Shown piece after piece: positions 7,821 through 45,430 of a DNA stretch of 64,000 bases; positions within the stretch are counted from its first letter, which is position 1; every line of letters starts with the position of its first letter. A program made the translations under genes and the position numbers. Source of the stretch: Escherichia coli (GTDB taxonomy: Bacteria > Pseudomonadota > Gammaproteobacteria > Enterobacterales > Enterobacteriaceae). The notes under the pieces are model-generated. The model had not been told where the DNA came from and did not search any database. It saw only the letters and a list, made by a program, of their open reading frames with translations. The stretch lies in NCBI RefSeq assembly GCF_024502345.1, contig NZ_JALDNN010000001.1. One strand, given 5' to 3'.

Positions 7821-8702
7821 ATGCACATCACCCTCCGGCAGTTGGAAGTTTTTGCAGAAGTATTGAAAAGTGGATCAACCACCCAGGCGTCGGTGATGCT
7901 GGCGTTGTCGCAATCAGCAGTGAGCGCAGCCTTGACCGACCTGGAAGGGCAGCTTGGCGTGCAACTGTTTGATCGCGTGGGGAAAAGACTGGTTGTTAAT
8001 GAACACGGGCGGCTGCTCTATCCGCGTGCGTTGGCATTGCTTGAACAGGCGGTTGAAATCGAACAACTGTTTCGCGAAGACAACGGCGCGATTCGTATCT
8101 ATGCCAGTAGTACCATCGGTAACTACATTCTGCCTGCAGTTATCGCCCGTTATCGCCATGATTATCCGCAGTTGCCGATTGAACTTAGCGTTGGGAACAG
8201 CCAGGACGTGATGCAAGCGGTGCTGGATTTCCGCGTTGATATTGGCTTTATTGAAGGACCGTGCCACAGCACTGAAATCATTTCTGAACCGTGGCTGGAA
8301 GACGAGCTGGTGGTTTTCGCCGCGCCGACTTCGCCGTTGGCTCGTGGTCCGGTCACCTTAGAACAGCTGGCCGCTGCGCCGTGGATCCTGCGTGAACGCG
8401 GTTCCGGCACGCGGGAGATTGTCGATTATCTATTGCTGTCACATTTACCGAAGTTTGAGATGGCGATGGAATTAGGTAACTCCGAGGCAATCAAACATGC
8501 GGTGCGTCATGGGTTGGGAATTAGTTGCCTGTCGCGACGGGTGATTGAAGATCAATTGCAGGCAGGCACATTAAGTGAAGTTGCGGTCCCTCTGCCGCGC
8601 CTGATGCGTACGTTGTGGCGTATACATCATCGGCAAAAACACCTTTCCAACGCGCTACGGCGCTTTCTGGACTATTGCGATCCCGCGAATGTACCGCGTT
8701 AA
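7821..8702 (+). CDS. yeiE: LysR-family transcriptional regulator, 293 aa
   Basis: ORF track; N-terminal HTH ([20 protein letters not shown]) and LysR substrate-binding domain. Confidence 0.9.
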
Positions 8703-8906
8703 GTTGCTGTACAAGAACATGCTGGTGCTGTGTCGATTTCGTGACGCAGCGCCCTCAGCATGCATTCGCCAGAAAAGAGATTGGCTGCTTTACTTATAAT
8801 CCCTGGGCGATCATGAAGGTGTCTTATAACCGTGTATTTCTGCCGGAAGGATTGCCAATCGTCTGCTACAATCGCGCCTCATTTTTAAGATGGATAGCAT
8901 TTTTGT

Positions 8907-40989: not shown

Positions 40990-41908
40990 ATTTAGCCATG
41001 TCAGCAAACTGTTTGGCGCACAAAAAGCCGTTAACGATCTCAATCTCAATTTTCAGGAAGGGAGTTTTTCGGTGCTGATTGGCACATCTGGCTCCGGCAA
41101 ATCCACCACCCTGAAAATGATTAACCGCCTGGTGGAACATGACAGCGGAGAGATCCGCTTTGCCGGAGAAGAAATTCGCTCGCTGCCAGTACTGGAGTTG
41201 CGCCGCCGTATGGGCTATGCCATTCAATCTATTGGCCTGTTTCCCCACTGGAGCGTGGCACAAAACATTGCCACCGTGCCGCAATTACAAAAATGGTCGC
41301 GGGCGAGGATTGACGATCGTATCGACGAATTAATGGCGCTACTGGGGCTGGAGTCAAATTTACGTGAGCGTTATCCGCATCAGCTTTCCGGTGGTCAGCA
41401 GCAACGTGTGGGAGTAGCGCGCGCACTGGCTGCCGATCCGCAAGTCTTACTGATGGATGAACCTTTTGGCGCACTGGACCCGGTAACGCGCGGCGCGTTG
41501 CAACAAGAGATGACGCGCATTCACCGTTTGCTGGGGCGTACCATTGTGCTGGTCACTCATGATATTGATGAGGCGCTACGGCTGGCAGAACATCTGGTAT
41601 TGATGGATCACGGTGAAGTGGTGCAGCAGGGGAATCCGCTGACGATGCTGACTCGTCCGGCGAATGATTTTGTCCGCCAGTTTTTTGGACGTAGTGAACT
41701 GGGTGTGCGCCTGCTTTCGTTACGTAGTGTGGCGGATTACGTGCGTCGCGAAGAACGGGCAGAAGGTGAGGCACTGGCAGAAGAGATGACGCTGCGCGAT
41801 GCGCTCTCCCTGTTTGTCGCGCGGGGATGCGAGGTGCTGCCGGTGGTGAACACGCAGGGCCAGCCTAGCGGCACGCTGCATTTTCAGGATCTGCTGGAGG
41901 AGGCGTAA
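40982..41908 (+). CDS. yehX: ABC transporter ATP-binding protein with C-terminal CBS-like region, 308 aa
   Basis: ORF track; Walker [10 protein letters not shown], signature LSGGQQQRV. Confidence 0.9.
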
Positions 41909-41912
41909 GCGT

Positions 41913-42644
41913 ATGAAGATGTTGCGCGATCCGCTGTTCTGGCTCATTGCTTTGTTTGTGGCACTGATTTTCTGGCTGCCTTACAGCCAGCCGCTGTTTG
42001 CTGCCTTGTTCCCACAACTGCCACGACCCGTTTATCAGCAAGAAAGTTTTGCCGCTCTGGCACTGGCTCATTTCTGGCTGGTGGGAATTTCGAGTTTGTT
42101 TGCGGTGATCATTGGTACTGGTGCCGGAATTGCTGTCACTCGCCCGTGGGGCGCGGAATTTCGCCCACTGGTGGAAACTATTGCCGCCGTTGGACAGACT
42201 TTTCCGCCCGTCGCAGTGCTGGCGATCGCCGTTCCGGTGATCGGGTTTGGTCTGCAACCAGCGATTATCGCCTTGATCCTTTACGGTGTGCTGCCCGTCC
42301 TGCAGGCGACACTTGCCGGGCTGGGAGCGATTGATGCCAGCGTGACAGAAGTTGCGAAAGGTATGGGAATGAGTCGTGGTCAGCGACTGCGTAAGGTCGA
42401 GCTACCGCTGGCGGCTCCGGTGATTCTGGCGGGCGTGCGAACTTCGGTGATTATCAACATTGGTACGGCGACGATCGCCTCAACGGTAGGGGCCAGCACG
42501 CTGGGTACGCCCATCATCATCGGGCTTAGCGGATTTAATACCGCGTATGTGATCCAGGGGGCGTTACTGGTGGCACTGGCGGCGATCATCGCAGACCGCC
42601 TGTTTGAAAGGCTGGTGCAGGCGCTTAGCCAGCACGCAAAATAA
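41913..42644 (+). CDS. yehW: ABC transporter permease, 243 aa
   Basis: ORF track; permease TM profile. Confidence 0.85.
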
Positions 42645-42732
42645 AGGTATAACCTGCGAGCATGACGCCACCAATTCCGCCTAACGCCATAAACAGGAAC
42701 AGGGCGATGACCCCAATTTTAGCTATGCGCAT
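42625..42732 (-). CDS. yohO: 35-aa small membrane protein [35 protein letters not shown]; 3' end overlaps the yehW 3' end antisense
   Basis: Not in ORF track; ATG with AAGGAG SD 7 nt upstream; peptide matches E. coli YohO as I recall it. Confidence 0.6.
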
Positions 42733-42791
42733 AATGCACTCCTTATGTTAACGAAAGGATTGTACAGTAAAGCGCATTTGTTAACGAATCA

Positions 42792-43523
42792 TTAAATGCC
42801 GAGTGGGAAAATATCATAGCCTTGTTCTTGCCAACTGGTGAGTTGCTGTTGTTGGGCGGAGGTTCGATTTTCACCGCACCACACCAGCAATGTACGGCCT
42901 TCGAACAGTTCAGGGCGTAGTTGATTGAGCGAGTGGGCGAGGACATCAATGCGCCATCCTTGTTGACTGGCAATCCAGCCCTCCAGCCACAGACGGGTGG
43001 TATCGTGAATATTCCAGCCAACCACCAGCGCATCTTTACCCTGTTTTTTACGTGCCGAAGCCAGACAGATGGCGATGTAGTTGATCAGTACGCCGTCGAG
43101 GATCGCCAGCAGCGCCTGGAGAGTCGGTTGTTGGCACTGAAGCCGTCGACGCAGAGGAATAAACAAATGCGTGGTGAGCGTCTGGGCGGGGTAATCCTGA
43201 CCGCGCTCTTTGATCCACGTTCGCAGGCTATGCAGATTGCCGCTTTGCAAGTAAGTCAGTAATGTTTCTTGCTGATCGCGCCAGCCGTTCTGCACATCAA
43301 CATTTTCATTACTGAGCAGCATTTTAACTTTGCTGACCTGCACGCCGTTGTCGATCCAGCGTTTGATCTCGCGGATCCGGTCAATATCGGCATCGTTGAA
43401 CAGCCGATGACCGCCGTCTGTCCGTTGCGGTTTCAGCAATCCGTAACGCCTCTGCCACGCGCGTAACGTGACAGGGTTAATATCACAAAGCAACGCCACT
43501 TCACCAATTGTGTAAAGCGCCAT
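42792..43523 (-). CDS. mlrA: MerR-family transcriptional regulator (curli/csgD activator type), 243 aa
   Basis: ORF track; N-terminal MerR HTH (MALYTIGEVALLCDINPVTLRAWQRRYGL). Confidence 0.9.
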   Translation of the reverse strand: MALYTIGEVALLCDINPVTLRAWQRRYGLLKPQRTDGGHRLFNDADIDRIREIKRWIDNGVQVSKVKMLLSNENVDVQNGWRDQQETLLTYLQSGNLHSLRTWIKERGQDYPAQTLTTHLFIPLRRRLQCQQPTLQALLAILDGVLINYIAICLASARKKQGKDALVVGWNIHDTTRLWLEGWIASQQGWRIDVLAHSLNQLRPELFEGRTLLVWCGENRTSAQQQQLTSWQEQGYDIFPLGI

Positions 43524-43744
43524 CGTCTCACCCTTGCTCGCGAGGTCCCGGTTTAACTTTAGACGCAGTTTTGCGAACCAGGTAGTTTTGCCCGTTTTTT
43601 GTGCATTTATAGGGTGATTTTATTTTTGCCAGGCGATTTTGAGTGATCGTACTCACGAATTCTCATTTTTCTGCAAGAGTTCAAAGAAAGTTAAACGCAG
43701 GCAATGTATGTTACGCGTTTTAAAGGGAAGTGTGGTTTGCGGGT

Positions 43745-45430
43745 ATGTACGATTTTAATCTAGTGTTGCTGCTGCTTCAGCAGATGTGCGTTTTTTTAGT
43801 CATTGCATGGTTAATGAGTAAAACGCCATTATTCATACCGTTAATGCAGGTCACGGTTCGTCTGCCGCATAAATTTCTCTGCTACATCGTCTTTTCCATC
43901 TTCTGCATCATGGGCACCTGGTTTGGGTTGCACATTGACGATTCTATTGCCAATACCCGTGCGATAGGCGCGGTAATGGGCGGCTTACTCGGCGGTCCGG
44001 TCGTCGGTGGGCTGGTTGGCCTGACCGGCGGGTTACATCGATATTCGATGGGGGGCATGACCGCGCTAAGTTGCATGATCTCGACCATCGTTGAAGGATT
44101 GCTCGGCGGCCTGGTACACAGCATCCTGATCCGTCGCGGGCGCACTGATAAAGTCTTTAACCCCATTACCGCCGGTGCCGTCACGTTCGTCGCTGAAATG
44201 GTGCAAATGTTGATCATCCTGGCGATCGCCCGACCTTATGAAGATGCGGTGCGTCTGGTGAGTAATATTGCTGCGCCAATGATGGTCACCAATACCGTCG
44301 GCGCGGCGCTGTTTATGCGTATATTGCTCGATAAACGCGCGATGTTTGAAAAATACACTTCGGCTTTTTCTGCCACTGCGCTGAAAGTGGCTGCCTCGAC
44401 GGAAGGCATTTTGCGCCAGGGGTTTAACGAAGTGAACAGCATGAAAGTGGCACAGGTGCTGTATCAGGAGCTGGATATTGGTGCAGTCGCGATTACCGAT
44501 CGAGAGAAATTGCTGGCCTTTACCGGAATTGGTGACGACCACCATTTACCCGGCAAACCGATATCTTCGACTTACACCTTAAAAGCGATTGAAACCGGTG
44601 AAGTGGTCTACGCTGATGGCAACGAAGTACCTTATCGTTGCTCTTTGCATCCGCAATGCAAACTGGGGTCGACGCTGGTAATTCCGTTGCGTGGTGAAAA
44701 TCAGCGGGTGATGGGCACCATCAAATTGTATGAAGCCAAAAACCGTTTATTCAGTTCAATCAACCGCACGCTGGGCGAGGGGATTGCGCAACTGCTTTCG
44801 GCGCAGATCCTCGCCGGGCAATATGAGCGGCAAAAAGCGATGCTCACCCAGTCAGAGATCAAACTGCTTCACGCCCAGGTGAACCCCCATTTTTTGTTTA
44901 ATGCGCTTAACACCATTAAAGCGGTGATCCGTCGCGACAGCGAACAGGCCAGCCAGCTGGTGCAGTATCTTTCCACTTTTTTCCGCAAAAACTTAAAGCG
45001 GCCTTCGGAGTTTGTTACTCTCGCCGACGAAATTGAACATGTGAACGCTTATCTGCAAATTGAAAAGGCGCGCTTCCAGTCGCGGTTGCAGGTCAACATT
45101 GCTATTCCGCAAGAATTATCCCAGCAGCAATTGCCCGCGTTTACCCTGCAACCGATAGTGGAAAACGCCATTAAACATGGGACATCACAACTGCTGGATA
45201 CAGGGCGAGTGGCAATCAGCGCCCGACGTGAGGGGCAACATTTGATGCTGGAGATCGAAGACAATGCCGGTTTGTATCAACCGGTAACCAATGCCAGTGG
45301 GCTGGGGATGAATCTGGTGGATAAGCGTTTACGTGAACGGTTTGGCGATGACTATGGGATAAGCGTCGCCTGTGAGCCTGATAGTTACACCCGAATAACC
45401 TTACGACTACCATGGAGGGACGAGGCATGA
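43745..45430 (+). CDS. btsS: LytS-type sensor histidine kinase (561 aa from MYDFNL start)
   Basis: ORF track (upstream extension to 43730); 5TM-LytS N-terminus, GAF-like region, His-kinase core. Confidence 0.9.

Follow-up and report, generated by a model that had tools for sequence, protein, structure and literature searches.

Several small proteins of 30–50 aa that work alongside a larger membrane protein offer the closest functional comparison for the gene considered here, namely AcrZ with AcrB, KdpF with KdpABC, CydX with CydAB and MgtS with MgtA. The KdpF and CydX genes share transcripts with those of their partners; the AcrZ gene is unlinked to acrAB, and co-expression with the partner in one operon is therefore not universal for small subunits. 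Short hydrophobic membrane peptides are also found in type I toxin–antitoxin systems, among them Ibs, Ldr, TisB and Hok. At the level of the transcript rather than the protein, convergent excludons provide a further point of reference; what defines them is that the two genes are expressed in a mutually exclusive way and that processing depends on RNase III.

The locus described here is a 35-codon minus-strand gene within a sequence of 64,000 nucleotides from Escherichia coli (the whole of this sequence is referred to as the window). It agrees with the YohO/UPF0387 family in sequence, length, position between mlrA and yehW and annotation, and no difference from that family was found. Like AcrZ, KdpF, CydX and MgtS, YohO falls within the 30–50 aa range, consists of one hydrophobic helix with a short charged N-terminus and is restricted to enterobacteria. 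Co-expression with a partner, as a comparison with KdpF and AcrZ would call for, was not found: yohO is convergent to yehW, its only conserved neighbour, unlike the co-transcribed KdpF and CydX genes, and it has a promoter-like −10 element of its own. With type I toxins YohO shares the short hydrophobic membrane peptide and an overlapping antisense transcript, but it differs from them in being encoded by a single-copy gene that is conserved family-wide, in being detectable at its native level and apparently tolerated upon induction, and in lacking a dedicated antisense sRNA family in Rfam. Finally, yohO and yehW form a convergent pair with overlapping transcripts that is named in the E. coli core set of such pairs (PMC12288877). 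It is the transcript overlap that is documented for this pair, and since the coding sequences themselves overlap, the two transcripts are bound to do so as well, with no need for a long UTR under regulation.

Results

Organization of the locus and identity of the gene

The features of the locus, in coordinates of the window, are the following.

41913..42644, plus strand: yehW, the convergent partner (PF00528 match and RefSeq annotation)
42394..42575, minus strand: readthrough on the yohO strand, running antisense to yehW as far as the Rho region at about 42394 (Supplementary file 2 of PMC7815308)
42576..42624, minus strand: 3' UTR of yohO, lying antisense to yehW coding sequence and ending at the Term-seq 3' end (supplement of PMC7815308)
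42625..42644: convergent, tail-to-tail overlap of the yohO and yehW coding sequences, 20 nt
42625..42732, minus strand: yohO coding sequence, 35 codons plus TAA, ATG start (ORF list and sequence)
42739..42744, minus strand: Shine–Dalgarno sequence AAGGAG, followed by the 6-nt spacer TGCATT and the yohO ATG
42759..42764, minus strand: promoter-like −10 hexamer TACAAT, 26 nt before the yohO ATG
42779..42784, minus strand: conserved TTAACA, 14 nt upstream of the −10 hexamer and at least 90% conserved in the intergenic alignment
42792..43523, minus strand: mlrA, same-strand neighbour upstream of yohO (NF011617 at 549.6 bits and MlrA Pfam domains)

The minus-strand frame of 35 codons at 42625–42732 can be read from ATG to TAA directly in the sequence, as the initial annotation of this DNA had stated, and the near-consensus AAGGAG that it described is present at 42744..42739, 6 nt before the ATG. 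The 20 nt overlap with the 3' end of yehW, also claimed there, follows from the coordinates of the two coding sequences, and the description of the product as a single-helix peptide is borne out by a GRAVY value of 1.58 and a mean of 2.41 for the best 19-residue window. As the ORF list contains 13 ORFs of at least 20 aa that overlap the roughly 800 nt at 42300..43100, the length of a 35-codon ORF is by itself weak evidence for a gene.

The gene had been termed 'yohO-like', which was a correct guess at the gene but an understatement, because the peptide sequence is exactly that of UniProt YOHO_ECOLI ('UPF0387 membrane protein YohO') and the gene is yohO itself. A 401-nt query over the site has matches in 5,423 of 5,426 complete E. 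coli genomes, where the RefSeq genes beneath the query are yehW, yohO and mlrA. The remark that the gene is easy to miss does not hold, since yohO is already annotated in RefSeq E. coli genomes. Its MG1655 counterpart is b4542 (2215657..2215764, 'UPF0387 family protein YohO'), which maps onto 42625..42732, and the RefSeq protein at this position is WP_001216963.1 ('protein YohO'). The NCBIfam equivalog NF010225 ('protein YohO') matches with 80.1 bits against a cutoff of 57, residues 1–35 being aligned to profile positions 1–35. A Pfam profile search of the peptide gave no match, the release searched being one without a model for YohO; precomputed matches of PF27791 ('UPF0387_membrane') are found on YohO orthologues. 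No chain in the PDB matches YohO. The feature is yohO, the type member of the UPF0387 family and an already known gene. As a discovery it offers nothing new, as the gene is named, is represented in UniProt, NCBIfam and Pfam and has been detected by ribosome profiling and mass spectrometry, and the overlap between the yohO and yehW transcripts has likewise been catalogued before.

In one matching E. coli record, the gene order is osmF-yehY-yehX-yehW on the plus strand, yohO and mlrA on the minus strand, and then btsS-btsR. yehW is the last gene of osmF-yehY-yehX-yehW and codes for the permease of a glycine betaine ABC transporter, and the spacer between mlrA and yohO is 59 nt long. The strain from which the window derives shows 25 differences from MG1655 in 1,901 nt but is identical to it from 42388 to 42817, and K-12 experimental data for this interval therefore transfer base for base.

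Conservation of the reading frame

Using MlrA as the query, we obtained 80 loci, each from a different species and together covering about 18 Enterobacteriaceae genera. A yohO homologue is located between mlrA and yehW in all 80 of them, and in 79 it is an intact ATG ORF with a length of 35 (34 loci), 36 (four loci) or 37 codons (41 loci). The GGAG core of the Shine–Dalgarno sequence is present at 83 of 85 orthologous loci, with a spacing of 6 nt to the ATG in 71. Conservation of the peptide and its Shine–Dalgarno sequence across genomes had been put forward as a check on the gene, and its outcome is thus positive for both. The sole locus without an intact frame, that of Citrobacter amalonaticus AUH_CA_2023_1 (L008, 3260..3410), is frameshifted by an extra T in a T5 run, which is probably a homopolymer assembly error. 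A second locus deserves comment on account of its label: L054 (CACSKA010000001.1) is titled 'Chryseobacterium sp. 18061' and contains an enterobacterial mlrA-yohO-yehW locus. Its YohO protein matches that of 'Citrobacter sp. 18056' (L053) in every residue, and the MlrA proteins of both are equally identical to the query. The L054 assembly looks mislabelled or contaminated.

Selection was assessed on 79 distinct nucleotide sequences, which encode 45 distinct proteins. Outside the overlap with yehW, the mean entropy at codon positions 1, 2 and 3 is 0.57, 0.23 and 1.22, respectively. The yohO frame has a pooled pN/pS of 0.29, and the two remaining sense frames have 1.06 and 2.47. One antisense frame also has a low pN/pS of 0.44, which we read as that of the frame whose wobble positions coincide with those of yohO and not as a sign of a second gene. 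The yohO reading frame is under purifying selection, and the signal is far beyond chance. The 45 proteins all share M15, A16, G19, I20, G22, V23, M24, L25, G27, Y28 and I31; they have G or S at positions 18 and 21, and 44 of them have K at position 5.

An exhaustive peptide search of 1.84 billion representatives returned 17 clusters, all at least 60% identical, many of which we read as frameshifted or misassembled variants from their aberrant tails. The divergent or named representatives that were looked up belong to Mangrovibacter, Shimwellia and Klebsiella, and the YohO family is, as far as sampled, confined to the Enterobacteriaceae. In a search for YehW homologues, all matches listed were at least 78% identical.

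Overlap with yehW

At each of the 79 intact loci, the yohO and yehW coding sequences share 20, 23 or 26 nt. The genes upstream of yohO are those of the metG side in Mangrovibacter, and in Shimwellia a TonB-dependent receptor is encoded there; mlrA is absent from this position in both, and the overlap of yohO with yehW, 20 nt in each case, is kept. This indicates that yohO is linked to yehW and not to mlrA, although the linkage is partly trivial, as overlapping genes cannot be separated without damage to one of them. According to the coordinates of the coding sequences, the wobble positions of yohO are the second codon positions of yehW within the overlap, and these positions stay variable (entropy 1.17). 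Over the overlap, the same loci have 14 distinct YohO tails versus 61 distinct YehW tails. YohO is therefore the constrained partner, while the last residues of YehW drift, and with a drifting YehW tail the overlap is able to persist at no cost.

Sequences upstream of yohO

Of 85 loci, 84 have a −10-like hexamer 25–31 nt ahead of the ATG, 62 of them at exactly 26 nt; it reads TATAAT in 61 loci, TACAAT in 16 and TATACT in seven. It is kept in Mangrovibacter and Shimwellia despite the different upstream gene, and a hairpin and T-run, which we read as the metG terminator, precede it at two of the three Mangrovibacter loci. From these sequence comparisons we infer that yohO has an independent promoter; transcription is predicted to begin near G 42752, which would leave about 20 nt of leader. 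No yohO entry was found in the supplementary data published with Cappable-seq and SMRT-Cappable-seq. With a promoter-like −10 element of its own, yohO expression need not depend on the neighbouring operon. No terminator-like site was found on the minus strand in the mlrA–yohO spacer (between 42733 and 42791), so that readthrough from mlrA probably also feeds yohO in E. coli.

The conserved TTAACA is present at the same offset in 60 of 85 loci. It is not a standard sigma-70 −35 element because the 14-nt spacer is too short, and with such an atypical −35 region, transcription from the yohO promoter may depend on an activator or on a different sigma factor. The conserved elements upstream of yohO could also represent a transcription-factor site. 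Two further sequences were noted in this region. A palindrome, TTAAT-N5-ATTAA, extends across the mlrA stop codon (in the region 42779..42799, minus strand) and is kept in Shimwellia without mlrA, and a second GTTAACA is located at 42746..42752 (minus strand), just before the Shine–Dalgarno sequence and 33 nt from the first.

An MlrA box at the yohO promoter was considered and rejected. The MlrA site of csgD is quoted as AAAGTTGTACA(12N)TGCACAATTTT (PMC3509220), and the sequence TTAACA-N12-TGTACAAT at 42759..42784 (minus strand) resembles it. With two mismatches allowed, the window contains three matches to an MlrA-box-like pattern against 0.86 expected, and six of 100 shuffles equal that number. 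The resemblance is not conserved outside Escherichia and Citrobacter, and the hexamer is the plain TATAAT in 61 of 85 loci; we regard the site as a −10 element whose resemblance is due to chance. The only other MlrA-box-like match is a near-palindromic, TGTACA-N12-TGTACA-like sequence at 8688..8715 (both strands) in the yeiE-lysP region.

Published detection of YohO and the 3' end of its transcript

In the literature, YohO counts among the known small membrane proteins and has Ribo-seq coverage, its membrane localization being given there through a secondary citation of Hemm 2008, and a proteomics paper from 2025 reports its detection by top-down MS. An RNA-seq comparison of S. flexneri under anaerobiosis tabulates yohO at −2.96. 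No function, partner or phenotype of YohO was found in the literature searched, and a search of the literature for 'UPF0387' found nothing.

The course of the yohO transcript beyond the gene can be followed in published K-12 data, positions of which were transferred to the window through NC_000913.3 coordinates and sequence match (MG1655 2215813 to 42576 and 2215995 to about 42394). The Term-seq study (Adams et al. 2021, PMC7815308) maps a 3' end to MG1655 2215813 (plus strand) and classes it as primary for yohO and as antisense to yehW. This end is 49 nt past the yohO stop codon and 69 nt inside yehW. Supplementary file 2 of the same study gives a region of Rho-dependent termination at MG1655 2215995 (plus strand), again antisense to yehW (Rho score 5.64, p = 9.4e-16), which is 182 nt beyond the mapped yohO 3' end and about 250 nt inside yehW. 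No convincing intrinsic terminator was found after either yohO or yehW. Folding revealed a 7-bp GC-rich hairpin at 42600..42581 that has no U-run, and the mapped 3' end is located 5 nt after it; we infer that this end belongs to a Rho-terminated transcript trimmed back to the hairpin. The yohO mRNA runs antisense into yehW until Rho stops transcription.

It had been suggested at the outset that the convergent overlap could couple expression of the small protein to readthrough of the osmF-yehYXW operon. Such a coupling is plausible, and it has been catalogued descriptively by way of the transcript overlap; the direction that is documented, however, is transcription of yohO into yehW halted by Rho, and not readthrough of the osmF operon into yohO.

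Discussion

The best explanation overall, to which we assign a probability of roughly 0.85, is that yohO (b4542) is a translated Enterobacteriaceae gene for a single-pass inner-membrane protein of 35–37 residues. In the mechanism that we propose, yohO would be transcribed from its own promoter and, in E. coli, probably also through mlrA readthrough. By the positive-inside rule, the protein is predicted to insert with the N-terminus in and the C-terminus out, as the Lys/Arg at position 2 together with the conserved Lys5 outweigh the single Arg/His33. The small-residue face of the helix, by analogy with small modulators, suggests helix–helix packing, and the invariant, small-residue-rich C-terminal half (M15-A16-x-G/S-G-I-G/S-G-V-M-L-x-G-Y28) may pack against another transmembrane helix. 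This helix could be part of a larger membrane protein that YohO modulates, in the manner of AcrZ, KdpF and MgtS, or could be contributed by further copies of YohO; the permanently linked YehW/YehY permease would be the obvious candidate for a partner. The overlap of 20–26 nt would persist mainly because the last residues of YehW are unconstrained, and once formed it would lock the two genes together. Functional tests can make use of three comparative handles, namely the invariant glycine-rich half-helix, the conserved putative promoter of its own and the overlap with yehW, which has never been lost and in which the YehW tail is unconstrained.

According to an alternative that is possible but on balance doubtful, and that can coexist with a functional peptide, yohO and yehW form a regulatory excludon in which cross-talk at the RNA level makes expression of yohO and of osmF-yehYXW mutually antagonistic. 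The yohO RNA would reach 70 to about 250 nt into yehW, the osmF-operon RNA would perhaps extend across yohO, and the outcome would be polymerase collision or RNase III cleavage. ExcludonFinder lists yohO-yehW among the 165 convergent pairs of the MG1655 core set, membership of which requires the transcripts to overlap in no fewer than 50% of 58 RNA-seq samples of MG1655 (PMC12288877), but because overlap of the coding sequences makes transcript overlap unavoidable, the listing has no bearing on any effect. The yohO 3' end inside yehW and the Rho-dependent termination antisense there, as given in PMC7815308, are in agreement with an antisense transcript, although one that is already limited by Rho. 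The lack of a convincing intrinsic terminator after either gene speaks for this reading; the 3' ends that the Term-seq study reports for this region, on the other hand, include none on the yehW strand. The overlap persists in every one of the 79 intact loci and in Mangrovibacter and Shimwellia, but its sequence drifts at the wobble positions of yohO, and hence no specific RNA sequence is preserved.

We think it unlikely that YohO serves the OsmF-YehYXW transporter as a dedicated subunit, accessory or regulatory, with its glycine-rich helix bound to YehW or YehY. All loci examined have yohO next to yehW, whether mlrA, the metG side or the TonB-dependent receptor lies upstream, as would be expected of such a subunit, but this linkage is forced by the overlap itself. 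The invariance of the C-terminal half of the helix on all its faces is also consistent with a dedicated binding partner; on the other hand, yohO is convergent to yehW instead of sharing a transcript with it, and a promoter-like element precedes yohO itself.

We give still less credence to the proposal that yohO is a bifunctional locus for OsmF-YehYXW, providing both a permease-binding peptide and a cis-antisense mRNA, or to the related idea that it arose de novo, antisense to the flank of yehW, at the base of the Enterobacteriaceae. The Rho-limited 3' extension of the yohO mRNA would in this case act as a cis-antisense RNA on the last gene of the operon, and the family-wide overlap would be a selected regulatory device and not a frozen accident.

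That YohO is a type I toxin-like hydrophobic peptide, held in check by the antisense 3' end of the osmF-yehYXW mRNA, is very improbable. Its small size and strong hydrophobicity would fit a toxin, as would the antisense transcript across its gene; however, yohO is a single-copy core gene of about 18 genera under purifying selection, its peptide is detectable at the native level and its Shine–Dalgarno sequence is strong and unobstructed. A search of 41800..43800 gave no Rfam match at an E-value of up to 1, and thus no dedicated antisense sRNA antitoxin, and there was no PADLOC match. Promoter-like matches on the opposite strand were at chance level, with one found versus 1.1 expected. In a growth-based screen for AlaE, the IPTG-induced ASKA yohO clone was recovered among the 65 first-round clones, being absent from later rounds, and its recovery argues, if only indirectly, against strong toxicity. 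We reject the toxin reading on the basis of the family-wide conservation, the detection at native level, the apparently tolerated induction and the absence of Rfam and PADLOC matches.

Chance ORFs of this size are common, but the notion that the ORF is incidental to a non-coding antisense RNA or to the mlrA 3' UTR is refuted by its conservation pattern (codon periodicity with a pN/pS of 0.29, an ATG start in every one of the 79 intact loci, and GGAG at 83 of 85) and by the published MS and Ribo-seq detection.

Some observations were made on the genes flanking yohO. Inside yehW, beside yohO, there is a peak of the RpoE-holoenzyme genomic SELEX data at about 42260 (old K-12 coordinate 2214150), with an intensity of 4.0 that equals the cut-off. 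In K-12, the Term-seq study (PMC7815308) also gives a 3' end within mlrA, 38 nt into the ORF, at MG1655 2214904, corresponding to position 43485 of the window (minus strand). This end coincides with a terminator-like hairpin and T-run at 43519..43497 (minus strand) and may mark transcripts that terminate early, or are attenuated, right at the beginning of mlrA. A single base near this end, at 43476, distinguishes the window from MG1655.
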